Positions 1-59,771 of a stretch of DNA of 59,891 nucleotides are shown here, in pieces. The translations under genes and the position numbers were made by a program. The notes under the pieces were generated by a model. That model saw nothing but the letters and a program-made list of their open reading frames with translations, was not told the DNA's origin and made no database searches. The stretch lies in the IMG/VR virus record IMGVR_UViG_3300006111_000001, one strand, 5' to 3'. Within the stretch, counting starts at the first letter, position 1. Each line of letters opens with the position of its first letter. This DNA comes from a virus.

Positions 1-120
1 TCAGATTGATATAGGTTGACGTGGAAACGGTCGGAGTCGCCGTCAACGTATCGCCGCTTTTCAAAAACAAATATGGATTTCCATAATTGTCCAATGGCAA
101 ACCCTGCCAAGTTGCAGAAT
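1..120. repeat. Terminal direct repeat, left copy (identical to 59772..59891)
   Basis: The first 120 nt of the window (tcagattgatataggttgacgtgg...gttgcagaat) recur exactly at the last 120 nt. The repeat lies inside the 3' end of a minus-strand ORF, so it is more likely circular-assembly overlap or terminal redundancy than an att site. Confidence 0.9.
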
Positions 121-450
121 TGAACATATTGACATTAAGCGCAGTCGAAACCGCACCGGCACCAGCCGGGATAGCAACCGTTGTTTGATAATAATTGACC
201 GCTGATCGGGTCACAAAAACCTGCACATTGTAAGCCGTGGACGTACAAGTATTTGCCGCTGTCAACGAAAAACACGCCGACCCATTGGCCCCAGCCGTGT
301 AAATCGTCACATTGTTAGCCGCATTGGATTGCACAAGGCCCAACGTAGGCGTTTGAACGGTTACAACGCTATTGGGCGTCGTTGCTGCATTGACCCCGCT
401 TGCAATGCCCACAAGTGATAATACAAGGGCCGAACTACAATAAAATTGAC
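1..450 (-). CDS. Fibre-module protein with signal-like N-terminus, T/N/G-rich (149 aa)
   Basis: Hand translation from ATG at 450..448 (MNARQFYCSSALVLSLVGIASGVNAATTPNS...STYINL) to TGA at 3..1. Not in the ORF track. Hydrophobic N-terminus followed by low-complexity T/A/N-rich sequence like the neighbouring fibre-module proteins. Confidence 0.45.
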
Positions 451-456
451 GCGCGT

Positions 457-1947
457 TCATTTTATGCCTCCAAAAGACCCCATAAGCACGGACACAGACG
501 CAGCTTGAATGTAAGCCGCCGTTGTTCCGCTAGATGATGTTCCGCAAGAAAAACCGGTGCCATTTGTGTAATTTAAATGATTGCCACCCGTATCCGTACA
601 TGATGGTAAGGTTGCAGCAGTTGGGCTTGCGGTTGAAGCGGTGACGTTTGCCACCACCGTATTTGCTGATTGTGTAGCGTGCATCGGTAAAGTGACCGTT
701 GCGGTATCCCCAGAAGTGATTACCGTGCCATTCACAGCTGGAATTGTTGTTGTAAAATTGGACGCTCCGGCGTTTGCCATGGTCAATGTATTAGCGCCCG
801 TCGATGACCCCAAAATCTTTATTGTTGAATTGTTATACGTTTGAACCGCCGTCCAAGTTTGCGCCAAATTCAATTCGGCAATGGTTCCGGTATTAGCTGG
901 TAAGGTTGCCGTGGTTGATCCGGCCACCGCTGTGGGAACAATCGTTGTGGCGCCACTTGTGGCACCTTGCATTATCAACGATCCGCCAACCGGCCCCGTT
1001 GATTGACCCAAAGTCAAAGCACCATTGGAAATCGTTGCATTGGCATTACCAGACACGGCATTTGTGGTTGAGGCGTAATAACTCAATTGCCCGGACGTAC
1101 CGGAATTGACCGTACCCGATCCGCCCGAAATAGTATTGCAGCCAAACCCCGTACTTGTGGTCCAAGTCAGCGCACTGGTCGCAGCCGAGCAAGATGGAAT
1201 GGCAAAAGACGCAATGTTAGCCGTTGACCCGGTGTTATTCCCCAAAATCGTGTTAGCCGTAATTTGCGGCAAATTTGCCAAAGTCAGACTATTTGACGGG
1301 AATGTAATCGTGGACGTTGCTTGCAGAGTGGTAAATTTGCCCGTGCTGGCCGTTGTGACGCCCACCGCCATGCTATTCAAACCGGTTGACGTTATGCTGC
1401 CAACGCTTGTTGGCGAAACAGTCCCCCCACCGGAATAAAAATTGATAACGCCCCCGGTTCCAAGCGCACCAATGTCAAATTCACCATCTGTAGTATAAGT
1501 ATAAGCCGCATGAGCAGCTGTAAACGGAGCTGCGGCCCCAGCACTATTATTTATGCCAAAATCCGCATAATGCGTTGAATCATTGCCATCGTCCGCCGTT
1601 ACAACAAAGTCAGATGAGGCACTTGATCCGCTATTGGTATTTTGAAGGCTCAATTGATAGAAATTATTGGCGTTTCCGGTAAATTGAAACGCCGTTGCGC
1701 CAGAACTTGTATATCCCGGCACACCCACATTGGTTCCCAGCGCAATTGATCCGCTTGTGGTGATCGGATTGGCCGTACAGGTTAAGCCGCCATTGGTCGA
1801 ACACGTCACAGACGTAACCGTACCCGATCCGCTGCCACCACTTGACGCCCCCGACGAAATCACAATTCCACTATTTCCCAATTGCTGAGCAATTGCGGGA
1901 ACGCAAACAATCAAGCCAAATAAAACAATAGCAAGCCGCTTCATCAT
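457..1947 (-). CDS. Putative tail fibre / receptor-binding protein, G/S/T-rich
   Basis: 496 aa; hydrophobic signal-like N-terminus (MMKRLAIVLFGLIVCVPAIAQQ); extreme Gly/Ser/Thr/Asn richness; sits in the distal tail module. Confidence 0.5.
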   Translation of the reverse strand: MMKRLAIVLFGLIVCVPAIAQQLGNSGIVISSGASSGGSGSGTVTSVTCSTNGGLTCTANPITTSGSIALGTNVGVPGYTSSGATAFQFTGNANNFYQLSLQNTNSGSSASSDFVVTADDGNDSTHYADFGINNSAGAAAPFTAAHAAYTYTTDGEFDIGALGTGGVINFYSGGGTVSPTSVGSITSTGLNSMAVGVTTASTGKFTTLQATSTITFPSNSLTLANLPQITANTILGNNTGSTANIASFAIPSCSAATSALTWTTSTGFGCNTISGGSGTVNSGTSGQLSYYASTTNAVSGNANATISNGALTLGQSTGPVGGSLIMQGATSGATTIVPTAVAGSTTATLPANTGTIAELNLAQTWTAVQTYNNSTIKILGSSTGANTLTMANAGASNFTTTIPAVNGTVITSGDTATVTLPMHATQSANTVVANVTASTASPTAATLPSCTDTGGNHLNYTNGTGFSCGTSSSGTTAAYIQAASVSVLMGSFGGIK

Positions 1948-2339
1948 TTGTAATAGCTCACGTTGATAGTGGCGCTTGCAGTCGTTTGAATAAACTGCAA
2001 CGAAGCCAGATTGCCCGTGTAAGACAAAGCAGAACCCGCCGCGACCAGCATGCCAACAGATGCAGTTGGTGCCACACCATCATCGCGCCACCGAACAGAT
2101 TGTGTTTCAACCACGATAACAGCCAATGTCGCCCCGGTCGGCACGGTCAAAAACGTTGCCCCAGACAATGAGGTGATTTGCTGATACCCCAATGGCGTTA
2201 CAAATGCCGTGGACACCGTGCAGCTTGGTTGACTGCCAGGGCATCCAACCGTTGAAATCTTACTTGGAACAACGCTTGCCGCAGTTTGGGCAAAAGCCGG
2301 TGATACCAAAAGCCAAAAAACGACAATTAACCATTTCAT
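1944..2339 (-). CDS. Small secreted/structural protein (signal-peptide-like N-terminus)
   Basis: 131 aa; MKWLIVVFWLLVSPAFAQ leader; start overlaps upstream stop (translational coupling). Confidence 0.45.
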   Translation of the reverse strand: MKWLIVVFWLLVSPAFAQTAASVVPSKISTVGCPGSQPSCTVSTAFVTPLGYQQITSLSGATFLTVPTGATLAVIVVETQSVRWRDDGVAPTASVGMLVAAGSALSYTGNLASLQFIQTTASATINVSYYK

Positions 2340-4747
2340 TTTTTGGCCTCCAATTCTTCAAGCCGGGCAGTGAGTTCACGCACCGCTTGCCACAACACCG
2401 GAATTAATTGATCCGGCCTCAAATGATGTGTGCCATCTTCGTCTTGCACATATCCGGCAAAATCTTTGCCCGTGGCGGCAAACGCATCGCGCACTTCGGT
2501 AGCCAAGAAACCCCAATGGGTCCGCTTGCCAGGACGATCCACAAATTTTTTAACTTTGACCTTTTTTGCGATCATGCGCGGGACAGGGTGCATTTTTTGC
2601 TGCAATTGTCCCGGCTCGCCTTTTTTGCCCGGCACAAATTCCATGACCGGATTGCCATCGGCATCAACCACCGGCATCAAGTCATAAACGCCAGTTTCCG
2701 TTTTAACGATCCGGTCAAACGCAACCGGCTTGCCGTCCACAATTTGAATATCGTGAACAACGCCCTCAGACACTTCGCTTTCGTGAACAAGTTGATCTTC
2801 TTCAACTTCAATTTCATCCCGTCCACCGGCAATCCACTTAAACGTCTTTGGTTCAAGGGATTTAATGATGGGCAACACATCCGAAACCGGCTCAATATCG
2901 GTTTTTAAACTTGGATCAGATGTTTGAATGGTGCCATTGACAGCCCACACCGCAGACCACCGGCCCGCCGCCGTGCCGCATGTGTAAGCATTGTCAGATA
3001 ACCCAGCCAAATGACCGCCAAACACAGCCGCATAACCACCGCCCCCGGTAAATGTGGCGCGTCCATTTAACGTCAAACCAGCCAGAACGCCCGTGCCGTC
3101 AATGTTAATATAAGCACTGGACGTTCCGCCGCTCAAAATGCCCACTTGACCAGACACGCATTGAATATAAGCCGTCCCCGGATTCATTGTGGAATCTGGA
3201 AACGCTTTACCCGCCCCATATGATCCGTTTAAATAAATGCGAGCGGAATCGGCCAAAACAATCGATGCACTGGTGCCAGGATTATATCGGTGCGCTTGGG
3301 TCAAGTCGATTGCCGCGCGATACCCGGACAGACCTTTAAACGAAATGCCCGCGTCCACCGGAAATTTTACAGTAGACCCGCCAATAACATTGGTTCCGCT
3401 GGAATCCATCAGCCAGCCAATCCACGTATTGCCGTAACCAACAGTCGTCGTGGTTCCGCTGTAGAAAGTGGATTGCGACGTGCTGGACCCGGCTCGCAGC
3501 ATGCTATGAAACCAACCGATACATGCCACGTCATAAGATGTGGTGCCAGAAAGATTGGTGTAATCAAATTCAAACGGGTTTAGATACGTGCCATCTTTGT
3601 AAGACGTGGCCCCGCCGTTCATGATTGAAACGGCAGGACACGTTGCAAACCCATAAGTCGCATCGCCGGACGTAATTGTGGGCTTGGCCAATGCCGAAAT
3701 GCCAACATTGACATTCAACGCGGCGCAATCGCCCTTATTGTCCTGATAGACATTTAATTGCATGCCAACGGCGCTTGTCCGTTGCGTCAACGGATTGCCA
3801 AAAACGGTATAATCCGTGCTGCTATTCCAGCCCGAATAGTTCCGCATAAACAAAGCAAAGGGAAAGGTTTGCGGCATGTAATAAATACCGGTTGAATACC
3901 CCCCCAGCGTGTTTAGGCCGGTGACATAATGTTCAATGGAAAAATTCTGGCGCGACCAATCCCCGTTAAAATATTTGGTATTATCGGCCAAAGCAAAATT
4001 AGTCAGGTCCGGTTGCATTGTGACCATTGAATAAAATTTGCCGCGCTTGGATTGCGAGCCATCCAACGCCAAAGACGCAACTTGCCCTTGACCATAGAAA
4101 TTTGCCGTTAATTTCGGCCAAGTCTGATATGTCGCACCACCCGTCGAGCTTCCGCCATCCGATGACGCGGTTATGGTTGTGGTATAAAGCCCAACGGGAA
4201 CATAAATGCTGCCATTTGTATTGGCGCCAATCGCCGTTGTGACCGCAACCGTATTGTCATACCCATAAGTCGAAATACCGCCATAATACGCAAGATTGCG
4301 CGGCAAATCCTGATCTTGAATGTTCCGAAATGTCGGAGACGCGGTGACACCCGTGGACGCATTCCCCGGCCCCGCCAAAAATGTTTGGCTGGACACCGAA
4401 ATAAACGACGCGCTTAAAGTGCCAAACGTGGTGACGGGCGATCCGGTAATACCAAATAAAGCCGTGGGCAAAAATAGGCCAACCGAATTGACCCCAGCCC
4501 CAGATACCGCGACCCAGCCCGCGCTTGTCGTGGTTCCCGTGGTGACACATGCATAATAAGCCCGATTGGTCACGTCATAGCAGAAATCGGGCGGTACACC
4601 CCCGGCAACACCTTGCTGCCCGGCAACATGCCCGTTTGGATTCCCGGCATAGACAAAGACATTAGGCGATTGAATATTTGAACTCATAAACCACCTATTG
4701 AACAAACCAATTGCCCGCGCCATCGCATTGCAGCGTTGCACTGGCAA
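2336..4747 (-). CDS. Tail fibre/tailspike with C-terminal intramolecular-chaperone (peptidase S74-like) domain
   Basis: 803 aa. C-terminal ~195 aa carry the hallmark pattern of the endosialidase/T5 L-shaped-fibre chaperone domain: ...TSDPSLKTDIEPV... and terminal ...HLRPDQLIPVLWQAVRELTARLEELE. N-terminal body is G/S/T-rich. Confidence 0.6.
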   Translation of the reverse strand: MPVQRCNAMARAIGLFNRWFMSSNIQSPNVFVYAGNPNGHVAGQQGVAGGVPPDFCYDVTNRAYYACVTTGTTTSAGWVAVSGAGVNSVGLFLPTALFGITGSPVTTFGTLSASFISVSSQTFLAGPGNASTGVTASPTFRNIQDQDLPRNLAYYGGISTYGYDNTVAVTTAIGANTNGSIYVPVGLYTTTITASSDGGSSTGGATYQTWPKLTANFYGQGQVASLALDGSQSKRGKFYSMVTMQPDLTNFALADNTKYFNGDWSRQNFSIEHYVTGLNTLGGYSTGIYYMPQTFPFALFMRNYSGWNSSTDYTVFGNPLTQRTSAVGMQLNVYQDNKGDCAALNVNVGISALAKPTITSGDATYGFATCPAVSIMNGGATSYKDGTYLNPFEFDYTNLSGTTSYDVACIGWFHSMLRAGSSTSQSTFYSGTTTTVGYGNTWIGWLMDSSGTNVIGGSTVKFPVDAGISFKGLSGYRAAIDLTQAHRYNPGTSASIVLADSARIYLNGSYGAGKAFPDSTMNPGTAYIQCVSGQVGILSGGTSSAYINIDGTGVLAGLTLNGRATFTGGGGYAAVFGGHLAGLSDNAYTCGTAAGRWSAVWAVNGTIQTSDPSLKTDIEPVSDVLPIIKSLEPKTFKWIAGGRDEIEVEEDQLVHESEVSEGVVHDIQIVDGKPVAFDRIVKTETGVYDLMPVVDADGNPVMEFVPGKKGEPGQLQQKMHPVPRMIAKKVKVKKFVDRPGKRTHWGFLATEVRDAFAATGKDFAGYVQDEDGTHHLRPDQLIPVLWQAVRELTARLEELEAKK

Positions 4748-5492
4748 AATTGGATCGAAGGTTAAAAGCGGACGTGGACCCTAAAATGGTGTCCCCGGAA
4801 TAAGGCGTCACAGCGATATTGTAGGTTTGAGCCGTGCCAATTTCGTCAGTAACGGTAATTTTGTTCCAGATATAAGTGGACGTGCATTGGTAAAGATTTT
4901 CGGTCTTGTTTGAAGCCGTGGCACTTTTCCAAGCAATCGTGCTTAGAGACGGAATTGCGGTATCCGTTGACCCAGATGTGATTTGGCGCCCCACATTGGC
5001 CGTTGACGTTGTGGTGGACACGGATAGTGAATTAATCTGGCTTTGAAGCTGTTGAGTGATATAGGTTAGGTAATCTAACCCGCCCTCAATCGCCTTAAAT
5101 GTCGGCCCCTGGTTGGAAATCGACACCGTTTGAACCAAAGGAACCACACGCGAAATCGTGATGTAATATCCCGCCGATAATGGCGATCCGGTTAAGGGAT
5201 AAGTGACCGTCCCGCCAATGCTTCCAACCCCTGTCAGGGTGTATTGGCTTGGCGTTAATGTGGTCAAAGTGTTGGGAGTGACATTGGTATTTAATACTGT
5301 GATGACCGCATCCCCAGCCGACACCATGGGGAAATTATAGGTGAACGAGGTTGTAACCCCATTTCCTTGCGCCGTGGTCGAACTTGACGTGGTTGAAACG
5401 GTCGAAAATACCGGGTCCGCAATCAGTCCCAGTACAACAAAGACCAGAATTTTAAACACGGCGGACAAGCGCATTTGCACCTTTTCCGCCAA
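4695..5492 (-). CDS. S/T-rich structural protein (fibre module)
   Basis: 265 aa; hydrophobic N-terminal segment then Ser/Thr-rich sequence; start may be the TTG at 5492 or the internal ATG (MRLSAVFK). Confidence 0.4.
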   Translation of the reverse strand: MAEKVQMRLSAVFKILVFVVLGLIADPVFSTVSTTSSSTTAQGNGVTTSFTYNFPMVSAGDAVITVLNTNVTPNTLTTLTPSQYTLTGVGSIGGTVTYPLTGSPLSAGYYITISRVVPLVQTVSISNQGPTFKAIEGGLDYLTYITQQLQSQINSLSVSTTTSTANVGRQITSGSTDTAIPSLSTIAWKSATASNKTENLYQCTSTYIWNKITVTDEIGTAQTYNIAVTPYSGDTILGSTSAFNLRSNFASATLQCDGAGNWFVQ

Positions 5493-25827: not shown

Positions 25828-27513
25828 CTATGCCGCAACTTGAACTTTAACCGTCTCAGGCGGCAAATACCTTGCTCGCTCCTCATCGGTTAAGGTTGCA
25901 GGGTTTTTGCACGTGACTTCCAACGTCCCCAAATGAACCACTTGGAATGTCAAATCAACATCGCACCAGATTTGATACCCAGCTTTGCGAACCTTGCGAC
26001 AGAAATTCAAATCTTCCGAAAAATACAAAAATTCTTTGCCGTCATGGCCCAAAGTGTAATTCTCGTTGATCCACTCCGCTAATGGCGTGCCATCCAAACT
26101 GTCCAAAACCTCTTGCGGCGGCACGTCCGTAAAATAATCTTTCAGCAAAGATTTGAACCCATCCAGCCGGGTTTCACCTTGCCAATGATAGGTTTCAAAA
26201 TATGACGGCCATTGCGTCTTGCGGTACACATCACATTTGACCAGCAACAACCCGCCAGGCAGCAACAAAGCTTCCTGTAACCCGCCTTCCATAACCGATT
26301 GCGGGTTTTTAAAGGTCCCCAATGTTTCATAGGGCGGCACGCGCTTATTATAAGTCGCGCCCACAATGTCTTTCTTGTGGTTCAACAACCGAATAAGCGT
26401 ATCCGGTGGAAACTTCATATCTGAATCCACCCACAGGATAAAATCGCATCCTGTATCCAAAGCTTTTTGAACCGTGGAGTTGCGGGAATGCGTAATCATC
26501 GAAGATTGAACATTGATAATGGCGGTATCAATCCCGGCCCGTGCCGAATAAGTCAGCAGCCCCGCCACATCAACCGCCGTTCCCGCTTCCCATGTCCGGC
26601 CAGATGGAATAGCAATACCCACCCGCAACGGACGCGGGATGGATTTTTTAATCTCAGCAATGTGCTTTTCAGCCGCCGCTTTGATTTGCAAATACTTGTC
26701 AGATGGCGCGTGATCCATCTTGGCCGACACTTGCTTGATCAATTCCGGATTGCGCAGGTGCTTAATCTTTTCATAGCAAAAGGCTTGGGCTTGCGGCAAA
26801 CGTTCAAGCATGGCCCGGAACGCAGCCGTTTCTTTGCCGCCAAACGCCACTTCACCCAGAATAAACGCGTCTCGGCACCGAACAGGATGCGTTGCCTCAA
26901 AATAGCCAAGCCAAAATTCAAACTCAACCAAACCGTGAGTAAGCCCCTTGCCTTCGGGCATTAACACATCAAGATCAACCTCGATCAATTGGCCAAACAC
27001 CGTGGCGATTTCATCCCACCACGTATCGCCAAACCAATTTGGAAACCCATTGGGCATGAAATACCCAAGTGTCTCATAGACCTTGCGAGGAATGACCGGC
27101 AGAGACGGAAACCCCTGATGCCCCGCATCCCGCAGGTGCATGACCCCAATCCCATTGACCAGTCCCTTGGCCGCATTAAAAATGCGATTGGGCCATTTGG
27201 CATCATCATCCAAAGTATAGTCATCGGCAAAAGCCATCAGATACTTACCTTGAGATTTTTCAGCCAAAGCATTGTAAACCGCTGCCAATGTCCCATGTCG
27301 CTCACCCAGCACGACGGACAATTGCCGACCGGGGATTTCAAGCGTGCCAAGCAATTCAACCGCTTCGGTATAAGTTGAATCGTCGTCGTCTAGTGCAATA
27401 AGCACTTCGACATTTGGCGGGATTTTGCGGTTAATCATCAAAGATGATACGGCGCGCAAAAGATTGCCGGGACGACCCCGCGACGGGATCAGGACAGAAA
27501 TTTCAATGGTCAT
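25828..27513 (-). CDS. Two-domain glycosyltransferase (GT-A fold, GT2-like N-domain plus second DxD domain)
   Basis: 561 aa; N-terminus ISVLIPSRGRP...ALDDDDS (GT2-like); second domain with WVDSDMKF (DxD) and C-terminal FSEDLNFCRKVRKAGYQIWCD. Confidence 0.65.
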   Translation of the reverse strand: MTIEISVLIPSRGRPGNLLRAVSSLMINRKIPPNVEVLIALDDDDSTYTEAVELLGTLEIPGRQLSVVLGERHGTLAAVYNALAEKSQGKYLMAFADDYTLDDDAKWPNRIFNAAKGLVNGIGVMHLRDAGHQGFPSLPVIPRKVYETLGYFMPNGFPNWFGDTWWDEIATVFGQLIEVDLDVLMPEGKGLTHGLVEFEFWLGYFEATHPVRCRDAFILGEVAFGGKETAAFRAMLERLPQAQAFCYEKIKHLRNPELIKQVSAKMDHAPSDKYLQIKAAAEKHIAEIKKSIPRPLRVGIAIPSGRTWEAGTAVDVAGLLTYSARAGIDTAIINVQSSMITHSRNSTVQKALDTGCDFILWVDSDMKFPPDTLIRLLNHKKDIVGATYNKRVPPYETLGTFKNPQSVMEGGLQEALLLPGGLLLVKCDVYRKTQWPSYFETYHWQGETRLDGFKSLLKDYFTDVPPQEVLDSLDGTPLAEWINENYTLGHDGKEFLYFSEDLNFCRKVRKAGYQIWCDVDLTFQVVHLGTLEVTCKNPATLTDEERARYLPPETVKVQVAA

Positions 27514-31157: not shown

Positions 31158-31952
31158 CTATCGCTTGCCCCATGCAGAGGCGAGAGGATTGTAATCAACT
31201 TCATGTTTGTTTGGTCGCAACCCAGCGCGCACGCGGTAATCGTCAACCGGACGAAATGCGGCAATGTCAATCCCGCTCATAATCCCATACCGCATGCAGT
31301 CCATTAAATGGTCATTTTCTTTGACCACTTGCCCCTTATCGTCCCGGCGATAAATGCGATACTCGCTTAACGTATTTTGCAGCGTTTTAAATATTTTAAG
31401 CCGCCCCGTCGATAATCGCATCCAGGTCCGATATATGCCCGCTTCCCTCGCATTATTGGCCGTAATCAGCGTTAATCCTAATTGTTGATATTCCCATAAC
31501 AATTGCTCGCCATCCTTTTGTGCTCGACCGCGTGACGCCGGATCAATAACCCCCGGTATCCACTCTCCGCGCGCCTTAATGGCTTGAGCGTGAGTCGATG
31601 GTTCAGCCTGCCCGCGATAATGTTCAGAATAAGCGTAAACCACGTCCGATTCGGTATCATGCGCAAACCACAATCCCGCCGTTCTATTCCATCCCACGTC
31701 CATGGCGTAAAAATGTTTCCAATGAGCGGGTATTTCGAACGGATCACAGGTCACGTCATCTTCCGGCACCGGATAAATGGCGCCCGATCCAAGGGCCGGA
31801 ATGCCTTTGGTGCGCGCGTCCCGTTCATGCGGAGCATAAGACTTAATCATTTCCGCTTGCGCTTCCGCTGATATGTGCGGAACGTCTGCCCAGGAAACGA
31901 ATGTAATGTATTTCGCCATTTCCGTTAGCCGTTTTGCAAAGCAACGGCCCAA
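31158..31952 (-). CDS. terL: Terminase large subunit, C-terminal nuclease portion
   Basis: 264 aa; RNase-H-like terminase nuclease pattern (…HFYAMDVGWNRTAG…, …ENDHLMDCMRYG…). Probable true start is MAKYITF at ~31919, 5 nt after the HNH stop. Confidence 0.7.
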   Translation of the reverse strand: MGRCFAKRLTEMAKYITFVSWADVPHISAEAQAEMIKSYAPHERDARTKGIPALGSGAIYPVPEDDVTCDPFEIPAHWKHFYAMDVGWNRTAGLWFAHDTESDVVYAYSEHYRGQAEPSTHAQAIKARGEWIPGVIDPASRGRAQKDGEQLLWEYQQLGLTLITANNAREAGIYRTWMRLSTGRLKIFKTLQNTLSEYRIYRRDDKGQVVKENDHLMDCMRYGIMSGIDIAAFRPVDDYRVRAGLRPNKHEVDYNPLASAWGKR

Positions 31953-32449
31953 CGCTTGCCGCGAACAATGCGCCCAATTTGCGTTTGTTTTACCCCAAAC
32001 ATTTCACCTAATTGTCGTTGATAAAATTTGCCGCTTTTCCAAAGGCTTAATATCTTACGCACATCATCGACAGACAAGACGGCGTTATGATGCCGCTCAC
32101 CCATCAAACTTGTCCCATGCTTTCGCTTGTCCAAATGATTTGACGACCGAGTATCCCATCTTAGATTTGAATAATGGTTATTCGATGGATCGCCGTCGAT
32201 ATGGCAAATTTCCGCCCCGTCAAACGGCTTTAACCCTATAAAAGCATACGCAACCAATTGATGAGCTTTTTTGTGGATCGACTTACCATCCTTACGCAAA
32301 ATCACCATTGGATAGCCGTCAGATCGAATCCACATCTTCAATATTTTGCCAATGCGCGCGCCGGGAGCAGCCGTAACGCGACGAACAGCGCCCCATTCAC
32401 TAACTTCATAATCCTCAAAACCAGGCACAATCCGCCATTCAGCAATCAT
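31925..32449 (-). CDS. HNH homing endonuclease inserted within terL
   Basis: 174 aa; N-terminal NUMOD4-like (YEVSEWGAVRR) and HNH core (HQLVAYAFIG…ICHIDGDPSNNHYSNLRWDTRSSNH). Start overlaps the TerL-ATPase stop (ATGA). Confidence 0.8.
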   Translation of the reverse strand: MIAEWRIVPGFEDYEVSEWGAVRRVTAAPGARIGKILKMWIRSDGYPMVILRKDGKSIHKKAHQLVAYAFIGLKPFDGAEICHIDGDPSNNHYSNLRWDTRSSNHLDKRKHGTSLMGERHHNAVLSVDDVRKILSLWKSGKFYQRQLGEMFGVKQTQIGRIVRGKRWAVALQNG

Positions 32450-33219
32450 GACTTAACCTCCCCTTCCAAACGCGCACCACCCGGCATGAATGAAAGAACC
32501 ACAGCCGAAAGGCCGCGCAGCGGCGTGAACCCGCATATCACCAACCCGGACGGTTGACCGGGCACGGTCGAAAGCGTTCGAGTTAAGCCTTCCGAGTAAA
32601 TGTCCAATGGCGGTTCTTCATCAAATTGCATAATGTCGATTTTGGCCGCTTGGAACGATTCACGCCCCTGATCATAGGATTTAAACAGCATCCGCGACAC
32701 GCCGCCCGATAAATGCTTGACCGTCACGCTATCCACAGCATCCGGCACGCCCGGCCTTGGTGTCGCCTTGATGATATTGTCAGCCGGTATTAAACCCGTG
32801 CCATGGTCCCCGGTTGGCCCCAAATACGTCACTTGCAAGGATTCGCGGACGGCCTTGGTATCTTCGCCCGCCGCCCACATGGTCACAGGGCGATCAAACT
32901 TGCGCCCAACCCACCAATGGGGATACCAACCAGTTAAATGAAGGGCGCACTCATACGAACACCCAAACGTCTTTCCCGATCGGTTGCCGCCGACCAAAGC
33001 CCGCTCTTGATACGTGGCCCCAGCCGCAAAATGGGCCAAATGCTTAGGGTATAATTCGCGCCGCAATGGCCCGGTATCAGGATAAGCCCGGTAAAGCAGC
33101 GTCTTGCGGTAAATGTCATGCTCTAATTCGATAATGGCCTTAAGGCGCGCATAATCATCCACCGGCAGCGCTGCCAATTGTTCTGGCGTCAGCGCCGCAA
33201 CTTCATCGAACAAAGCCAC
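32446..33219 (-). CDS. terL: Terminase large subunit, N-terminal ATPase portion
   Basis: 257 aa; Walker A (GGNRSGKT), Walker B-like (IDIMQFDEEPP); ends where the HNH ORF begins. Confidence 0.75.
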   Translation of the reverse strand: MALFDEVAALTPEQLAALPVDDYARLKAIIELEHDIYRKTLLYRAYPDTGPLRRELYPKHLAHFAAGATYQERALVGGNRSGKTFGCSYECALHLTGWYPHWWVGRKFDRPVTMWAAGEDTKAVRESLQVTYLGPTGDHGTGLIPADNIIKATPRPGVPDAVDSVTVKHLSGGVSRMLFKSYDQGRESFQAAKIDIMQFDEEPPLDIYSEGLTRTLSTVPGQPSGLVICGFTPLRGLSAVVLSFMPGGARLEGEVKS

Positions 33220-42457: not shown

Positions 42458-43120
42458 ATGGAAACTTTAGGTAAACGAGTGCGCGCCCGTCGCGCTGATT
42501 TAAAATTGTCTCAAGCGGAACTTGCCAGCCGCGTGGGCATATCTCAGCCGTCTTTATCAGCCATTGAAAATGACGAGACTCAAGGCACCACCAAAATATT
42601 AAAGCTGGCAGAAGTATTGGAATGTGACCCCAATTGGCTTTTGATGGGCAATAAACTAAAGTTTAGCGTCCCCAACAAACTTACAACTTATAAAAATAAT
42701 CCTGTTGCAAACGAATCAGTTTTTACTACCATCAATATGGGCAAAAGAGACTTACCTATTAGAGGTCTGGCTCAAGGGGGTGATGGGGTGCTAACATTTG
42801 ACCAAGACGCAATAGATTATACTTTTCGTCCATCTAATTTAGTCGGCATAGATGAAGCGTTTGCGCTTTATGTTACCGGCGACTCCATGGGCGAAGTCTT
42901 GATCCCAGGCACTTTGTTATTGGTTCACCCCAAACAAGAACCAAAAATTATGGATTTTGTCGTTATTGAAAAAATTGACCGATCCGTAATCGTTAAACGA
43001 TTGGTTCGCAGATCGGCCAATAGCGTCACCTTGCGCGAATACGACCCGCCCAATGATTTTGTGCTTTCTCGCAGCGAAATTCGAATGATGTTGCGGGTTT
43101 GCGGGACGGCCATGGAATGA
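42458..43120 (+). CDS. CI-like repressor (HTH_XRE plus S24 LexA-like peptidase domain)
   Basis: 220 aa; N-terminal …LKLSQAELASRVGISQPSLSAIENDET… HTH; C-terminal …FALYVTGDSMGEVLIPGTLLLVHP…VIVKRL… with Ser and Lys catalytic-dyad context. Confidence 0.8.
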   Translation: METLGKRVRARRADLKLSQAELASRVGISQPSLSAIENDETQGTTKILKLAEVLECDPNWLLMGNKLKFSVPNKLTTYKNNPVANESVFTTINMGKRDLPIRGLAQGGDGVLTFDQDAIDYTFRPSNLVGIDEAFALYVTGDSMGEVLIPGTLLLVHPKQEPKIMDFVVIEKIDRSVIVKRLVRRSANSVTLREYDPPNDFVLSRSEIRMMLRVCGTAME

Positions 43121-43443
43121 AACGGCTTGCCGCACTCTTTATACTAGGAGCATGCGCCAGCCCTCAGCTGGCCACACCCCAACAAAAAAACGAGGCAATC
43201 AAAACCTGGTTTGATTGCATGACTATAAAAGCCGTGCAATTCGACGACCACCAATCCGATGCCGGATCAATCGCTTTGGGCATTATGGGGCTTTGCCACA
43301 CGGATTTTATGGAAAGCGTGCGTTTACAATTAACCGGCACATCCCCAGCCCTTCAAACCAATCTTAAGGCCAAGCTTTTAAACGATGAACTGCCAATGGC
43401 AACCAGCGTCGTTTTAACGGTGCGATCCCCTCAAAAACGCTAA
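43117..43443 (+). CDS. Lipoprotein (possible superinfection-exclusion protein)
   Basis: MKRLAALFILGACASPQ lipobox-like signal (…LGAC); immediately downstream of the CI-like gene with ATGA overlap. The track ORF starts 18 nt upstream at 43099. Confidence 0.5.
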   Translation: MKRLAALFILGACASPQLATPQQKNEAIKTWFDCMTIKAVQFDDHQSDAGSIALGIMGLCHTDFMESVRLQLTGTSPALQTNLKAKLLNDELPMATSVVLTVRSPQKR

Positions 43444-50023: not shown

Positions 50024-50341
50024 ATGAACTTCCCGCGCCCAATCCCAGCCAACAGGCAAGATGAAATTGAAATTCATCGGCCTTGGGCACGGCTGCCAAA
50101 TTGGCCGCGATTGCTACCAGAACTTTTGGCGGCTGCCTATGTCGGCGGTGTCTCGATCGGTACTTTCCGAACGGAGGTCGAACAAGGCATTTGGCCCCCG
50201 CCAATCCGGCGCGGACGGCGCATATTTTGGGATTTGGGCGACCTTGATAGGGCAGTTGACCGGCTAAAGGGCATTGTATCTGATACTCTTCCTGATCAAC
50301 CTTCGGGCCTCGGGGACATAAATTGGGACAAATCCGCTTGA
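50024..50341 (+). CDS. Excisionase / AlpA-like HTH protein
   Basis: 105 aa; …LLAAAYVGGVSIGTFRTEVEQGIWPPPIRRGRRIFWDLGDLDRAVD… resembles Xis/AlpA DNA-binding domains; immediately upstream of integrase. Confidence 0.5.
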   Translation: MNFPRPIPANRQDEIEIHRPWARLPNWPRLLPELLAAAYVGGVSIGTFRTEVEQGIWPPPIRRGRRIFWDLGDLDRAVDRLKGIVSDTLPDQPSGLGDINWDKSA

Positions 50342-51375
50342 GCCTCAGCGTGCCACGGCTCCATATCGTCGGGGACCGCTTTTATTGGCGCCCCACGGCC
50401 CCTATCCGTGCTTTGGGGTTTTCTTACGAGGCTTTGGGCAAAGACCCCATGAAAGCCGCTGCAAGGGCCAGGGAGCTTAATGAACAGGTCGAGCGGGCCA
50501 AACTAGGGTTGGATGCCAGGACCAAGCGCGGCGACACGGTGGCAGCCCTGATCGACGCCTATCAGTCCTGCCCCCGGTATAAGAGCCGGGCGGAAACCAC
50601 CCGAAAGGGCTATGACCATTTCCTAAAACACATCCGCGCGCTTGCCGGGCATGTCATTGTGGCGACCATTGACCGGCCCGGCATGTTGCAGACCTATGAG
50701 AAGCTAATCGCCGCCAGGGGCCTTTATACCGCCAATGCGTATATGAAGGTCTGGCAGATATTGCTTAAGCACGCCTATGACCTCGGATGGCGCAAAGATA
50801 ACCCCGCCGCCGGGCTTGGGCTTCAAACGCCGCCGCCGCGAGAGCAAGTCTGGACGGTCGATCAAATCCTTGCATTTTGTGATGCCGCCGTGGAAATGGG
50901 CAGGCCGTCCATGCGTCTGGCGATGCTATTGGCCTATGACCTTGGGCAACGCCCTGGCGACTATATCAAGCTGACTTGGACCACTTACACCGGGTCCGGG
51001 TTTATGATTAAGCAGTCCAAGACCAAAACCCGCGTCAATGCGCCGTTCGAAAACCCGTTTCTTTGGGCTGAAATCGACGCCATGCCGCGCAAACACTCGC
51101 ATGTCTTGATTTGTGAGGGGACCAAAGCCCCCTATAAGGCTGATTATTTCCGGCACCTATGCACCAAGATCAGGCGCGCGGCCAAACTGCCGGAACAGCT
51201 TCAATTCCGCGATCTGCGCCGGACAGCCGCCACGGAAATTGGCAATGCCGGGGCAACAGATGATCAGTTACGGGCGCTCCAAGGCTGGAAAACCCGGAAT
51301 CAGGCGGCGACTTATGTGGTGGTATCGTCAGCCGGTGCCGAAGGCGCTCAAGCGAAACGGAGGGCGAACAGGTAA
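50323..51375 (+). CDS. int: Tyrosine integrase
   Basis: 350 aa; N-terminal SAM-like and C-terminal catalytic patterns (…GQRPGDYIKLTW…, …FRDLRRTAATEIGNAG…LQGWKTRNQAATYV…). Confidence 0.8.
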   Translation: MGQIRLSLSVPRLHIVGDRFYWRPTAPIRALGFSYEALGKDPMKAAARARELNEQVERAKLGLDARTKRGDTVAALIDAYQSCPRYKSRAETTRKGYDHFLKHIRALAGHVIVATIDRPGMLQTYEKLIAARGLYTANAYMKVWQILLKHAYDLGWRKDNPAAGLGLQTPPPREQVWTVDQILAFCDAAVEMGRPSMRLAMLLAYDLGQRPGDYIKLTWTTYTGSGFMIKQSKTKTRVNAPFENPFLWAEIDAMPRKHSHVLICEGTKAPYKADYFRHLCTKIRRAAKLPEQLQFRDLRRTAATEIGNAGATDDQLRALQGWKTRNQAATYVVVSSAGAEGAQAKRRANR

Positions 51376-51983: not shown

Positions 51984-52107
51984 CGCGAACAATATCGGTT
52001 TAGGCTGACACAGAATCGGACACATCATTTGTCAGGGGTGTTCTGGTTTTGCCCCATATATTATTCATTATTGGGTTTATTGAACATTATATGGGTCATC
52101 CCGGCTC

Positions 52108-53404: not shown

Positions 53405-54031
53405 CTAATTTGCTTTGCGCTTTTTGCAATCGCGCAATCGTGTGTAAATAATGCTTTCGCTGACTTTCAGCTTGGCCGCGATTTGCTTGATCGTCAGCCC
53501 TTCCTTGCGGAGGGCTTTAATCTGTTTCAGCTTTTCAGCGGTTAGTTTCTTGGGCGCACCTTGCCAGCCGCCCTCACGTTCTTTAAACGCCTGAATACCG
53601 GCTTTAGTCCGTTCAATGGTTAGCTGGCGTTCAAATTCCGCGACAATGGCGAATAGGCCAAGGATTAGCTTGCCGGTTGCTGTGCTGAAATCGAATTGCT
53701 CTGTCAGGGATTTAAAAGACGCGCCCGCATCGGAAATCTGGTCTAGCCGTGCGTATAGTTCACGCATATTGCGGGCCAGCCGATCTAGACGCCAGACCAC
53801 AAGGGTATCGCCCTCGCGCAAATCTTTCATGGCGTGTTCAAGTGCCGGTCTGGACTTAGACGCCGCCGATTTTTTTTCGATGTGGAGATTGTCGGGCAAC
53901 ACCCCGGCACGCTTAAGCGCGTCCACTTGAAGGTCAAGTTTCTGATCTTCTGTGAACACGCGGGCATACCCGATTAATCGGGTCGCGGGCAGGTCTGGCA
54001 ATTTTGTGCGTCGTTTCAAAACCATGACCAC
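53405..54031 (-). CDS. Serine recombinase (Hin/Gin invertase-resolvase family) with Phe in place of the catalytic Ser
   Basis: 208 aa; strong family match (…DTLVVWRLDRLARNMRELYARLDQISDAGASFKSLTEQFDFSTATGKLILGLFAIVAEFERQLTIERTKAG… plus C-terminal HTH), but the nucleophile motif reads GYARVFTEDQ (codon ttc) instead of GYARVSTxxQ. Confidence 0.75.
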   Translation of the reverse strand: MVMVLKRRTKLPDLPATRLIGYARVFTEDQKLDLQVDALKRAGVLPDNLHIEKKSAASKSRPALEHAMKDLREGDTLVVWRLDRLARNMRELYARLDQISDAGASFKSLTEQFDFSTATGKLILGLFAIVAEFERQLTIERTKAGIQAFKEREGGWQGAPKKLTAEKLKQIKALRKEGLTIKQIAAKLKVSESIIYTRLRDCKKRKAN

Positions 54032-55661: not shown

Positions 55662-56834
55662 TTGATTCGCTCATTCAACTACATCCCAGCGCGTGCAGCC
55701 GGTCAAATTTTGTTTGACGGATTCCCATATCAATCCGCGATTGAGTGGCCCAATTTCATTCATGGCCAATGTCAAAACATTCAAGCCAATGGTCAGCCCG
55801 ATCAATTTGGATGGCGATACAAAACCATTGACGGCACCCCTTACCTTTTGGCCGATGACCCATTTGTGGTCAAATTAAAAAACGCAATGGTTCAGCGCGT
55901 CAATTTTGGTCAAGACCGCTGGCACGTTGCCGTCAGCCCAGGGGTTTGTATTGAAGAAACCTATTATTCGGGCGAATGGTTTAACCGTTTTTGCGGTCAA
56001 ACCATGAGAATCCCCACCAATGCCGGATCGTTTGACGTGCATGTCATGGAAGATATTGCGCCAGAGTCGGTGTCATCCGTCCCCAGCGTATTATTGGCTC
56101 ATCAATGGGACACGAATTATGCGCATTGCCTAATGGAAACCGTGGGAAAATTGTTTTTAGCAGAACATTGGGACGATCATTTGCCGCAGCTAATCTGGAA
56201 CCCGACAACCCCATATCAGCGCGAGATTGCGGATTTGCTATCAATCAAATACGTTCCGCAAACCCAAAAAGCCGTTCAATACGATGAATTATATGTCATT
56301 TCCCAATTTGCCCATAACGGGATTTGCGCGGAACAGTTCAAACAAATCCGCGCGCTGTTTCAACAAAGGCTTTGCGACAAAATCCCTTATTTCTCAAATC
56401 CCCCAGTTACATCAGGCAACAAGCGCATTCTGATTTCCAGAAACGACGCCACCAGCCGCCGTATTGCTAATGAATCAAACATAATGACCGCCCTGGCTCC
56501 CATGGGCTTTGAGCGTGTCACGTTGAGCAATTTAAGCGTGCTCGACCAGGCCAAGCTATTTCATTCAGCATCAATCATTGTGGCGCCACACGGCGCCGGA
56601 TTAATGAATATGCTGTTTGCCAGCCCCAGCACCGCCTTGATTGAAATTGCCCCCGAATCCTACCAGCACCCTTTGTTCTGGTACGTCGCCAAGTGGTTGG
56701 GCCATTGGTACGGGCGAATCATCACCCCGGATCACGGTTCCGAAAAAGACATGATTGTTGACATTGCGGCGGTTAAAAACGCCATTGACGCCGCCATATC
56801 GTCTAAAAGTGTACGGTCATCACTTGTTGCATAG
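55662..56834 (+). CDS. Glycosyltransferase, GT61/DUF563-like
   Basis: 390 aa; C-terminal …RILISRNDATSRRIANESNIMTALAPMGFERVTL…LFHSASIIVAPHGAGLMNMLFASP… resembles the DUF563/GT61 core. Confidence 0.55.
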   Translation: MIRSFNYIPARAAGQILFDGFPYQSAIEWPNFIHGQCQNIQANGQPDQFGWRYKTIDGTPYLLADDPFVVKLKNAMVQRVNFGQDRWHVAVSPGVCIEETYYSGEWFNRFCGQTMRIPTNAGSFDVHVMEDIAPESVSSVPSVLLAHQWDTNYAHCLMETVGKLFLAEHWDDHLPQLIWNPTTPYQREIADLLSIKYVPQTQKAVQYDELYVISQFAHNGICAEQFKQIRALFQQRLCDKIPYFSNPPVTSGNKRILISRNDATSRRIANESNIMTALAPMGFERVTLSNLSVLDQAKLFHSASIIVAPHGAGLMNMLFASPSTALIEIAPESYQHPLFWYVAKWLGHWYGRIITPDHGSEKDMIVDIAAVKNAIDAAISSKSVRSSLVA

Positions 56835-56889
56835 CTAAAAAGGCATCAAGGTAAATAAAAACGCCTTTTAACCCCTTGGAGTAACGACA

Positions 56890-57378
56890 ATGAAAAACGC
56901 CCTATTAGCTTTATTGGCCCTAATGTTTATTGCACCCCCAGCCATGGCCGGAGGAACGCCGTGTCAAATGTTCGCCGGGTATTTTCGCTGTAACGGCGGC
57001 AATCAGGCTTTATGGGTGCCAAATTCCGGCCTGTATTGGAACCCCAGCGAAGGCGGTACAAGCTGGACCATCCAACAATCCACCAATGGCCACACAATCC
57101 TGATTTCTGGCCTTGGATGGAGCGATACCGGCAACGGCAATGCAGATTGGTATTTGGCCAGACTAGAGCCGGTTGACACCGAAACGGCGCCTAACGTTTA
57201 TACGTCAACGTCAACAATTCAGTGCATCGGCGGTCAAGGTCTGTCATCGCCCAATTATCTTGCGCCCAATTGCGTTTTGACCGGCAAATCCATTTCGCTA
57301 ACGCTGGAAAGCACAACGGCTGGCACTTTGGTTTACGGCACCAGAACCAGCCACGTTGAAAATTACGTCAATTTTTAG
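56890..57378 (+). CDS. Secreted protein (signal peptide)
   Basis: 162 aa; MKNALLALLALMFIAPPAMAGG leader; last gene of the plus-strand accessory operon. Confidence 0.45.
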   Translation: MKNALLALLALMFIAPPAMAGGTPCQMFAGYFRCNGGNQALWVPNSGLYWNPSEGGTSWTIQQSTNGHTILISGLGWSDTGNGNADWYLARLEPVDTETAPNVYTSTSTIQCIGGQGLSSPNYLAPNCVLTGKSISLTLESTTAGTLVYGTRTSHVENYVNF

Positions 57379-57640
57379 TCCGGCAATTGGCTTCGACATT
57401 ACGATTGTGAATAACCGCCCATTGCTTTTCCGAACGCGTCCATCTTGATTCAAAATCTGAATCAGGATGGACTTCGGAAAGCCACCCGCACGCAGTTGGA
57501 TTAGGCGCCGGATTTTCCGCGCAACTCGCTGTCAAGATCAGCGTCAGACATGCGCCGCACATCATCATGAATGATTTGAGCATTTCGATCCTCCGCAACA
57601 GCGGATTGCAAATCAACCGCTTGTTGTTCAATTCGGCCAT
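57368..57640 (-). CDS. Lipoprotein, o-spanin-like (overlapping the i-spanin-like gene)
   Basis: Lipobox-like …LILTASC…, Pro-rich; overlaps 57501..57734 in another frame as in Rz/Rz1 pairs; likely starts at an internal Met. Confidence 0.4.
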   Translation of the reverse strand: MAELNNKRLICNPLLRRIEMLKSFMMMCGACLTLILTASCAENPAPNPTACGWLSEVHPDSDFESRWTRSEKQWAVIHNRNVEANCRTKN

Positions 57641-57734
57641 GATCCCTTAATCCCTTGTCTCGAACCATATCAACAATCTTCGCCCCTATGGACGACACGA
57701 TGGTCGAGACAAGGGATAAAAGGGCTTCAATCAT
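57501..57734 (-). CDS. i-spanin-like protein (N-terminal TM plus charged helical segment)
   Basis: 77 aa; MIEALLSLVSTIVSSIGAKIV hydrophobic N-terminus then charged helix. Confidence 0.4.
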   Translation of the reverse strand: MIEALLSLVSTIVSSIGAKIVDMVRDKGLRDHGRIEQQAVDLQSAVAEDRNAQIIHDDVRRMSDADLDSELRGKSGA

Positions 57735-58084
57735 TGACCAGCCGTTTGTTGCGCGCCATGGGCTTGAGCAATGGCCGTTGACAGAGCAACCGCCAGTGAC
57801 GCCGCCCCAGCCTTTACACCCGCCGCAACCGCCGCTTTAGCCGTGCTGGACGCCGCATCGCCAATGGCTTGAGCCGCAGCATGCAAATCAGTCGGATTGC
57901 TGGCAACCGCTTGAATGGCCGAAGTGGCAAATTGTTCCGCAAACGGAATCAATGTGGCCACTTCGGCGTGTTCAATTTGAGAAACAGCATCGGTCACAAA
58001 CGGCTCGACAGCCTTGTGAAACCATTGTGAAAACCAAGACATATTAAACCCCGTTTGTTTGAAGGGATTGAGGATCAATTTCAC
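57731..58084 (-). CDS. Hypothetical Ala-rich protein in lysis cassette
   Basis: 117 aa. Confidence 0.35.
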   Translation of the reverse strand: MKLILNPFKQTGFNMSWFSQWFHKAVEPFVTDAVSQIEHAEVATLIPFAEQFATSAIQAVASNPTDLHAAAQAIGDAASSTAKAAVAAGVKAGAASLAVALSTAIAQAHGAQQTAGQ

Positions 58085-58355
58085 GGATTAACTTGCGCCG
58101 GATGGCATCCACCAACGGCACCAAAGACGCCCCCACAATCAGCGCCACTTCATCGCCAGGCACAACCAATTGACCGGCGCTCAGGCAATGAATGACCCAT
58201 TGCAACACAAGCCCAGCGCCAGCCGTGGACATGGCAACAGCGGACGTGGAAGTATTTTGACTGGTGTTCATAACATTACCCTGATAAAGCCGACGCAGCC
58301 GCTTGAGCAAGCTGATTATCGGTATATGGATCAGACCCGTTTTCGTGATGGACAA
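58044..58355 (-). CDS. Hypothetical membrane protein
   Basis: 103-aa track ORF with hydrophobic helices; overlaps neighbours, start uncertain. Confidence 0.3.
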   Translation of the reverse strand: MSITKTGLIHIPIISLLKRLRRLYQGNVMNTSQNTSTSAVAMSTAGAGLVLQWVIHCLSAGQLVVPGDEVALIVGASLVPLVDAIRRKLIREIDPQSLQTNGV

Positions 58356-59759: not shown

Positions 59760-59771
59760 CGCAAACAGAGG

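Follow-up and report, generated by a model that had tools for sequence, protein, structure and literature searches.

Fibre-like proteins with predicted Sec export leaders, one of them a tail-anchor protein, in the late operon of a temperate podovirus

Introduction

The N-terminal anchor domain of podovirus tail fibres is represented by the N-domain of T7 gp17, by epsilon15 gp20, Carin-1 Dpo31 and LME-1 orf22 and, in a hub-type relative, by CBA120 TSP4. The solved members of this family, and most of the sequenced ones, start with Met-Thr, have no leader and are assembled in the cytoplasm – where, to our knowledge, tailed-phage virions are taken to be assembled in their entirety. The only Sec-dependent late proteins of tailed phages that we know to be recognised are lysis proteins and exclusion factors. 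Here we analyse a 59,891-nucleotide stretch of DNA from a freshwater phage (IMG/VR record IMGVR_UViG_3300006111_000001; the window, below, is this whole stretch) in which a module of six late genes, named F, E, D, C, B and A in their order on the minus strand, encodes five proteins with leaders resembling Sec signal peptides. In one of these, F, the leader is fused to an anchor domain at the point where other family members begin. F shares this arrangement with about 22 close relatives, some of which have gained a cysteine pair inside the domain, unlike the leaderless members of the family. A virion-docking domain behind a secretion signal is the most surprising point of the analysis.

Judged by analogy of architecture, the closest functional counterpart for exported phage-like fibres appears to be the MAT (mosaic adhesive trimer) family of Bdellovibrio bacteriovorus. 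A MAT protein comprises a signal peptide, a conserved beta-rich N-domain of ~130 amino acids (aa) and a long, phage-like trimeric fibre with swappable tips, sometimes bearing an S74 chaperone; after export these proteins act outside the cytoplasm (PMC10769870). Leader-bearing phage fibres are built analogously, and a leader-bearing fibre with S74 also occurs in a phage (an 880-aa protein of contig L176, below). The comparison holds at the level of architecture only: MATs are chromosomal genes of a predator, whereas the module lies in a phage late operon between internal virion proteins and lysis genes, and the MAT N-domain is reported to lack a PDB homologue (PMC10769870), whereas that of F is a phage tail anchor.

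Other described systems share single features with the module. Gp19 of Burkholderia phage BcepC6B and orf035 of Xanthomonas phage PBR31 are leader-bearing, fibre-like and share with C a cysteine-pair module (PSCS...GxGC); each is a single leader-bearing protein after a leaderless anchor fibre, not part of a five-gene set that includes the anchor. T5 Llp and phi80/N15 Cor are small exported lipoproteins encoded beside receptor-binding genes, guarding against adsorption to the producer cell or its debris. What links the module to these is no more than its place in the genome and the notion of receptor masking: A–D and F are fibre-derived, span 131-496 aa and carry no lipobox, and F has a tail-docking domain, unlike the lipoproteins. 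The gp38-type tips of T-even phages adopt a polyglycine-II structure and have no signal peptide. Protein A resembles them, and the Pfam family Gly_rich_2, in that it is small, rich in glycine and encoded as a protein of its own behind a fibre shaft; it differs in its leader and in falling below the Pfam threshold. Signal-arrest-release (SAR) endolysins and spanins are late proteins, encoded in or beside the lysis cassette, that use the host Sec system, and the present genome has an o-spanin-like lipoprotein of its own. Spanins, however, are small and have a lipobox or an N-terminal membrane anchor, whereas the module proteins are large and fibre-like, with AxA motifs and no lipobox. SAR domains have no cleavage region and are rich in Gly and Ala (PMC3765740).

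Results

Sec-like leaders on five of six module proteins

Leaders were called by a crude heuristic scan for n-, h- and c-regions, combined with comparative evidence. F, D, C, B and A each begin with a K/R-containing n-region, an uncharged hydrophobic core and a small-x-small motif at -3/-1, in agreement with the anatomy of Sec/signal peptidase I substrates (charged n-region, h-region of 7-18 residues, small residues at -3 and -1). With the predicted cleavage site marked by a slash, the leaders read MRLSAVFKILVFVVLGLIADPVFS/TV (F), MKWLIVVFWLLVSPAFA/QT (D), MMKRLAIVLFGLIVCVPAIA/QQ (C), MNARQFYCSSALVLSLVGIASGVNA/AT (B) and MLKNLRFGLIALLFAIGQLGFAVA/TP (A); D, C and B have AxA/VxA ends of textbook form. 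The same scan detects no leader in E. Across the genome eight of 90 open reading frames (ORFs) scanned positive: the five of the module, two lipobox proteins (one an o-spanin candidate) and an ORF of 162 aa. In simulation, at least five of eight positives fall within six consecutive genes with a probability of ~5e-4.

The hydrophobic Sec-like leaders to which a first-pass annotation of the sequence had drawn attention are thus real and non-random. That annotation had placed them on five consecutive proteins with Gly/Ser/Thr-rich, low-complexity bodies. There are indeed five leader-bearing genes, but they are five of six, the leaderless 783-aa E standing between F and D. The compositional bias is likewise evident: the summed fraction of G, S, T, N and A is 0.45-0.67 in the five proteins against 0.33-0.44 in the capsid protein, portal, internal virion protein, tail tube B and E, and that of D, E, K and R is 0.03-0.07 against 0.11-0.27. 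Only A, with 31% Gly, is low-complexity in the strict sense.

Other classes of leader were considered and rejected. Lipoprotein signals are ruled out by the lack of an L-x-x-C lipobox, Tat signals by the lack of a twin-arginine (RR) motif, and SAR domains by the strong hydrophobicity of the leaders (Leu/Ile/Val/Phe) and their AxA-type ends.

That the leaders are a product of wrongly chosen start codons was rejected on the strength of translational coupling and start context. E and D, D and C, and C and B overlap as ATGA; this coupling, together with GGAGG, fixes the starts of D, C and B. In F the longest ORF begins at a TTG without a ribosome-binding site, and the start is most plausibly the ATG after AAGGTG; whichever is used, no canonical start codon lies 3' of the hydrophobic segment. 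Independent gene calls on public contigs agree on the lengths of F, E, D, C, B and A (259, 783, 131, 496, 160 and 279 aa).

F is a podovirus tail anchor

F consists of a 24-aa leader, an anchor domain at residues ~25-115, a long helix (124-152) and a small C-terminal beta domain (172-258). It matches PHROG tail and tailspike N-domain families (E 4e-23), and tblastn (4e-10) matched it to the epsilon15 tailspike and to fibres of Pelagibacter podophages. An exhaustive HMMER search gave 6443 hits, 1328 of them at E<=1e-10. The AlphaFold2 (AF2) model consists of a beta-sandwich with a predicted local distance difference test score (pLDDT) of ~96, the long helix and the small C-terminal beta domain, with the leader modelled as a helix; the fold of the anchor is that seen in cryo-electron microscopy maps of podovirus tails. 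By sequence and by fold, F is a podovirus tail-fibre N-terminal anchor of the T7 gp17-N type. Its mature form would have 235 residues and lacks a receptor-binding body, and so resembles an adaptor or hub. The scanned ORFs of the genome include no other anchor-domain protein.

The position of the leader relative to the domain is exact. For this comparison we used the best 150 representatives of the 6443 hits, 147 of which have an anchor-domain match. In the family the domain starts at the protein's own N-terminus, and F departs from this: ~125 of the 147 do start there, beginning MT[IV][SG]T…QGNG without a leader, and their residue 2 aligns with residue 25 of F, the first after the predicted cleavage site (VFS/TVSTT). 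The residue at -1 stands where the leaderless relatives have Met, and the alignment to the epsilon15 tailspike has the same offset. An initiator Met is expected to be removed before Thr. If it is removed from the leaderless relatives, cleavage of F would recreate their N-terminus.

Some 22-23 of the 147, namely the closest relatives of F, carry leaders of their own, ending AxA/T[VI][SG]TT, and these include full-length spikes of 550-990 aa. At the 34 columns that are at least 80% conserved among the leaderless relatives, conservation is 0.92 in the leader-bearing proteins and 0.92 in the leaderless ones. Such undiminished conservation indicates that the docking function has apparently not been relaxed.

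Comparative signatures of export

Evidence that the leaders function in export came firstly from the homologues of C. Among the best 120 of 237 homologues, to which the leader and cysteine counts for C refer, 91 have a leader, typically ending AxA/Q, even though the leader sequences themselves diverge – a pattern that argues against the leaders not being export signals. Secondly, the mature proteins tend to have an even number of cysteines. Among leader-bearing homologues of C this holds for 88 of 90 (binomial p 7e-24), among the leaderless ones for 14 of 21, and among leader-bearing relatives of F for 19 of 21. Within the anchor domain a C-xQGxTx-C pair is present in nine of 22 leader-bearing relatives and in none of the 125 leaderless ones (Fisher p 7e-9). 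In the module itself, mature C has three local cysteine pairs and D has one.

The family of D (1292 homologues) comprises two forms. The abundant leaderless form is 91 aa long and has a single cysteine in 90 of 105 cases. The leader-bearing form, found in 15 of the best 120 homologues, has 131-136 aa, with a signal peptide and a GCPG…PC linker ahead of the same ~80-residue core, and two or four cysteines in 13 of the 15. Nearly all D-like genes have a fibre-like gene after them, and the two vary together in their leaders. On viral contigs with a callable partner, the fibre that comes after a leaderless D-like gene was itself leaderless every time (41 of 41); after a leader-bearing D-like gene the fibre has a leader too, in the window (D, then C), in L094 (135 aa, then 392 aa) and in L176 (136 aa, then the 880-aa protein with S74, then one of 773 aa). 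The co-variation, 3/3 against 0/41, gives a hand-calculated Fisher p of ~8e-5; one orphan leader-bearing D-like gene was also seen.

Taken together, five comparative lines – conservation of leaders, exact fusion in F, the cysteines, the two forms of D, and co-variation of partners – favour real Sec export. Even cysteine numbers, leader-specific pairs and the co-variation of leaders between partners would be unexpected of cytoplasmic proteins. From these sequence comparisons we judge that the five leaders are probably genuine Sec (signal peptidase I) export signals.

The D-like gene and its fibre gene behave as a mobile two-gene cassette, found at differing positions (L092 7627..10136; L094 7150..8732; L176 8001..13368): between portal and scaffold genes in a P22-like phage, and in BPP-1-like podophages between the portal and either the terminase or the lysis genes. 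At the end of the leader-bearing 392-aa fibre of L094 (7554..8732) an apparent S74-like motif precedes a hydrophobic C-terminal segment (…WWIAGLTLWNLGLTFGLWRLARNKRNA), an order of elements that suggests that a cleaved chaperone part may be membrane-anchored.

The companions of F

E, which has no leader, is a conventional tail fibre or spike that carries an S74 intramolecular chaperone: its C-terminal Peptidase_S74 domain (PF13884, E 5e-9; 36.7 bits against a cut-off of 22) has the SDxxxK motif as SDPSLK, and PHROG tail fibre and tail spike families cover residues 305-802. Homology searches with its N-terminal 300 aa returned only a marginal match. D joins a linker with a cysteine pair (GCPGSQPSC) to the ~80-aa conserved core (LGYQQITSLS...VRWRDDG..PTASVGM...SYYK).

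C is a G/S/T-rich shaft protein with local cysteine pairs at 49/57, 253/270 and 450/468. Its residues ~220-440 form a widely shared fibre module, and its modules are common to leaderless tail fibres and to proteins containing S74 or Collar domains; the 'PSCS...GxGC' motif recurs in BcepC6B gp19. The AF2 monomer model of C is poor (pLDDT 55), though each cysteine pair brackets a predicted beta-hairpin. Searches of phages with C and B by tblastn gave no match. B has a cysteine pair (63/72) and one single cysteine and is an orphan, with no homologue in Pfam, PHROGs, NCBIfam, PADLOC, PDB or INPHARED.

A has a glycine-rich body and no cysteine. Its match to Pfam Gly_rich_2 (PF21722; E 0.007) falls below the cut-off (16.8 bits against 24.3), yet spans positions 2-223 of the 226 in the profile. 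A homology search with A returned nothing, probably because of its low complexity, and BLASTP of A against Gly-rich relatives was not significant. A protein designated P0119 fuses a C-like, leader-bearing N-terminal part to a significant Gly_rich_2 domain (E 5e-9, 37 bits), which suggests that C and A act as shaft and tip. PDB sequence searches gave no meaningful match for A, B, C or D, and NCBIfam and PADLOC nothing for the module proteins.

The same layout in other phages

The layout is general, extending beyond one contig and further than could be seen when the sequence was first annotated. Directly before its lysis genes, an unrelated contig of 60 kb (L007) has a run of five leader-bearing ORFs, and a myovirus-like contig (L008) has two directly after a baseplate wedge gene. 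In a 34-kb podophage contig (L074) internal virion proteins are followed by a leader-bearing anchor fibre, four more leader-bearing ORFs and then small ORFs that may be lysis genes; no leaderless fibre was found within the 20 kb examined. A large SU10-like contig encodes a leaderless 1503-aa spike followed by a leader-bearing homologue of C. In podophages of Burkholderiales type a leaderless anchor fibre precedes a single leader-bearing protein, whose mature N-terminus is conserved (TLNPIQLLNPTGSTSGQ…), and the holin comes next.

The cultured examples of this last arrangement are BcepC6B gp19, annotated 'tail fiber protein', and PBR31 orf035, annotated 'putative structural protein'. Their leaders read MKKLIAILLAVPALALG/ATLAPIQLLNP... 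and MKKLIALFSLFCTSAFG/ATLNPIQLLNP..., respectively, and each gene sits between a tail fibre or spike gene and the holin. The literature searched mentions neither leader; the PBR31 paper gives a signal peptide only for the esterase gp40. A literature search for signal peptides on phage-encoded fibres likewise returned no description – absence of evidence, not proof of novelty – and the matches instead concerned spanins, SAR endolysins, an esterase, Bdellovibrio MATs and WceF.

Gene order and genome context

The window is a circular contig of 59,771 bp when closed, with an exact 120-bp terminal direct repeat (1..120 = 59772..59891). It is identical to contig Ga0208872_1000169 of JGI metagenome 3300025838, and the same genes were found again in several other samples. 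ORF B was split by the arbitrary point of linearisation, and its sequence was rebuilt after removal of the 120-bp overlap. The genome junction, to which weight had been given because the genes span it, is therefore an artefact of this assembly overlap.

All genes of the module lie on the minus strand (Table 1). The order is the 1826-aa internal virion protein, F, E, D, C, B, A, a holin-like ORF, the endolysin and spanin candidates; tail tube A/B, the internal virion proteins, capsid and portal are all upstream. The internal virion protein next to F places the fibre genes at the canonical podovirus position. The early description of the leader-bearing genes as lying downstream of the large fibre gene fails for F, which is upstream of E, and of the boundaries first assigned those of D and C stand, while B starts at 460 rather than 450 and F and A run as tabulated. 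Promoter and terminator scans of the module revealed no enrichment over shuffled sequences. The module is a late, translationally coupled unit within a long structural and lysis operon.

Table 1. Positions of the module and of other features within the window
Feature	Position	Strand	Details
Internal virion protein, 1826 aa	5567..11047	minus	PHROG internal virion protein; directly upstream of F
F	4695..5474	minus	259-aa precursor; ATG after AAGGTG; 24-aa leader 5403..5474
E	2336..4687	minus	783 aa, leaderless; ATG after TAGGTGG, 10 nt past F stop
D	1944..2339	minus	131-aa precursor; 17-aa leader 2289..2339; ATGA overlap with E, GGAGG 8 nt upstream
C	457..1947	minus	496-aa precursor; 20-aa leader 1888..1947; ATGA overlap with D
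B, 5' part	460..1	minus	160-aa precursor; 25-aa leader 386..460; ATGA overlap with C, GGAGG 8 nt upstream
B, 3' end	59749..59891 (continuing 59771..59749)	minus	Stop codon 59749..59751; 59772..59891 repeats 1..120
A	58908..59747	minus	279-aa precursor; 24-aa leader 59676..59747; ATG 2 nt past B stop
Lysis cassette, directly downstream of A	57368..58901	minus	Holin-like ORF 58683..58901; endolysin 58276..58710 (PHROG E 1e-48); small membrane ORFs
Spanin candidates	57501..57734 (i-spanin-like); 57368..57640 (overlapping o-spanin candidate)	minus	Lipobox LTASC in o-spanin candidate
GT61-family glycosyltransferase	55662..56834	plus	First gene of cassette 55662..57378
162-aa protein	56890..57378	plus	Second gene of the same cassette
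Serine recombinase	53405..54031		208-aa resolvase/invertase-type protein; Resolvase + HTH_7
Inverted repeat flanking serine recombinase	52076..52100 / 55854..55878		25 nt, 72%; weak
Tyrosine integrase	50323..51375		
ORF with lipoprotein-type leader	43099..43443	plus	Small; early/regulatory region
Large terminase, split	31158..33219	minus	Terminase_6N 32446..33219; Terminase_6C nuclease domain 31158..31952
Homing-endonuclease ORF	31925..32449		HNH_3/NUMOD4
GT2-domain protein	25828..27513	minus	561 aa; Anp1-like segment

The phage is a temperate podovirus of T7 architecture. Identified components include a small terminase, a split large terminase, a T7-type portal, a protease, the major capsid protein, tail tube proteins A and B and four internal virion proteins, one of them of 1826 aa, together with a tyrosine integrase and a serine recombinase. 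The latter is flanked by just a weak inverted repeat, and an invertible segment is unsupported. The two parts of the large terminase are separate ORFs with a homing-endonuclease ORF between them that overlaps both. No nucleotide match to the module was found in INPHARED, and none of 50,697 deposited phage records is related to the phage at the nucleotide level. No tRNA was found in the genome, which therefore gives no attachment-site or host clue from this source; the nearest genomic relatives of F are in metagenome-assembled genomes (MAGs) of Stellaceae, 'delta-proteobacterial', beta-proteobacterial and Paraburkholderia assignment, and those in Stellaceae and Burkholderiales-type MAGs hint at the host.

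Both glycosyltransferase (GT) genes noticed at first annotation are present. One, of family GT61, begins a plus-strand cassette convergent with the lysis genes; the second gene encodes the 162-aa protein, which has a classic signal peptide (MKNALLALLALMFIAPPAMA/GG) and two cysteine pairs, and the two may form a lysogenic-conversion or moron cassette. The other GT gene, inside the structural/replication region, encodes a protein with an N-terminal GT2 domain and an Anp1-like segment. A small ORF in the early/regulatory region has a lipoprotein-type leader (MKRLAALFILGAC/ASPQ) and is a candidate exclusion lipoprotein; it has no NCBIfam or PADLOC match.

Discussion

A critical issue is where the exported proteins would go. 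The explanation we favour, and put forward tentatively on the strength of sequence comparison, is that the module encodes a Sec-exported, disulfide-stabilised set of fibres that is loaded onto virions at lysis. Late in infection one long structural and lysis operon would make six products in order: F as fibre hub, E as leaderless spike, D as a small partner of the fibre, C as shaft, the orphan B, and A as a glycine-rich putative tip. F, D, C, B and A would be translocated unfolded to the periplasm and cleaved there after VFS (F), AFA (D), AIA (C), VNA (B) and AVA (A); the processed proteins would then fold, trimerise and gain disulfide bonds in that compartment. The cytoplasm, meanwhile, would make particles without fibres. 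Once holin, endolysin and spanins breach the envelope, these particles would meet the periplasm-matured fibres, some of which would presumably dock on F, and the adsorption apparatus would be mounted at or after lysis.

The full conservation of the docking domain of F, combined with the prospect that cleavage restores the N-terminus of its cytoplasmic relatives, makes the virion the most likely destination. Only this destination accounts for the export of a hub, the conservation of its docking domain, the exact N-terminus, the co-export of fibre partners and the fact that the fibre candidates of L074 all have leaders. P22 heads lacking tailspikes can be completed in vitro, and loading onto virions at lysis is for this reason biochemically plausible.

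Several considerations weigh against loading at lysis. We know of no precedent for post-lysis assembly in tailed phages, and such assembly should cost efficiency. By analogy with branched receptor-binding systems E is expected to dock on F, and E is leaderless: the model thus needs two compartments. In phages of BcepC6B type the anchor fibre is leaderless and only the next protein bears a leader, which fits an accessory, non-virion role equally well. The leader calls come from a heuristic, and the leader of F is the least canonical of the five: it has a Lys within its N-terminal part, its c-region contains Asp-Pro, and the residue at -1 is Ser. The parity of cysteines is indirect as evidence of export, and the structure model of C is too poor to confirm a fibre fold.

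It is possible, if somewhat unlikely, that the proteins are exported and never join the virion, acting instead on the envelope of the producer cell or being released as free fibres at lysis. From the periplasm they could attach to receptors or nascent surface polysaccharide, or cut them, and so mask or destroy receptors; progeny would be spared loss on debris, release through capsule or exopolysaccharide (EPS) would be eased, or superinfection would be blocked. The receptor-masking genes llp of T5 and cor of phi80/N15 lie beside receptor-binding genes. Fibre-like genes with leaders adjoin the lysis cassette here and in L007, L008, L022, L024, L176, BcepC6B and PBR31, and a BcepC6B-type virion already has its leaderless anchor fibre, the exported protein being an extra. 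Among leader-bearing neighbours or relatives, some have weak matches of glycoside-hydrolase or pectate-lyase-like kind, and Pantoea WceF is described as an exported, tailspike-like EPS-modifying enzyme (PMC7949094). A role apart from the virion leaves unexplained, however, why F – a hub with no receptor-binding part – should be exported, why its docking domain is as conserved as in virion proteins and why cleavage would yield the canonical N-terminus. It would also leave L074 with no fibre at all in the region examined, and Sec delivers only to the periplasm, so that receptors on the outer surface could be reached only by a further secretion step.

That the module encodes surface fibres of the lysogen – adhesins expressed from the prophage, altering adhesion or cell-cell interactions – is improbable. 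The phage is temperate, as its tyrosine integrase and serine recombinase indicate, a convergent cassette of GT61 and secreted-protein genes lies nearby, and the MATs set a precedent for the export and display of a phage-like trimeric fibre, with S74 or lacking it, behind a signal peptide and a conserved N-domain (PMC10769870). Yet the genes are coupled inside the late structural/lysis operon, where scans gave no indication of a promoter or terminator of their own, no device for translocation across the outer membrane is encoded nearby, and the N-domain of F matches phage tail anchors, whereas that of the MATs is reported to have no PDB homologue (PMC10769870).

More improbable still is that the leaders are not export signals at all and represent start-codon artefacts or N-terminal helices (for trimerisation, membrane tethering or membrane penetration) of cytoplasmic virion proteins: reliance on a heuristic predictor, the helix in the AF2 model and the TTG start of the long ORF of F speak for it, but the fixed starts of D, C and B, the lack of a downstream canonical start in F, the concordant gene calls, the AxA/Q or AxA/T motifs that recur in divergent leaders and the cysteine and partner patterns do not fit it. 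Among the possibilities raised by the first-pass annotation, that of secreted proteins is strongly supported (by leader conservation, exact fusion, cysteines and co-variation), and the AxA-type motifs and the cysteines speak against that of uncleaved N-terminal anchoring helices. The third, a family of adhesin-like appendages, is supported for F with its anchor fold and for C with its shared fibre modules, and is weak for A, whose Gly_rich_2 match is below threshold. As a whole, the initial interpretation is partly supported.

Returning to fibres loaded on virions at lysis, it is possible, though we remain doubtful of so broad a claim, that in widespread podophages and some other tailed phages the receptor-binding apparatus is built outside the cytoplasm, the docking hub and its fibres being exported by Sec, processed by signal peptidase, folded oxidatively in the periplasm and snapped onto fibre-less particles at lysis; they could also act on the envelope before lysis. 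Since the cultured phages BcepC6B and PBR31 have the same arrangement, the question is directly testable.

If true, this would add an extracytoplasmic maturation step to tailed-phage morphogenesis. A tail-docking domain fused to a cleavable-looking export signal, and cassettes that gain and lose such signals jointly, challenge the picture of assembly in the cytoplasm only. There are practical consequences as well: because such proteins are labelled 'tail fiber' or 'structural', host-range prediction and the annotation of receptor-binding proteins are affected, as is the engineering of phage host range, and periplasmic expression and DsbA may be needed when fibres and depolymerases of phages are made as recombinant proteins. 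Either outcome would be new: an adsorption apparatus matured in part in the periplasm, with disulfides and perhaps other modifications made there, and mounted at lysis, or fibres that have repeatedly been turned into exports acting on the envelope.

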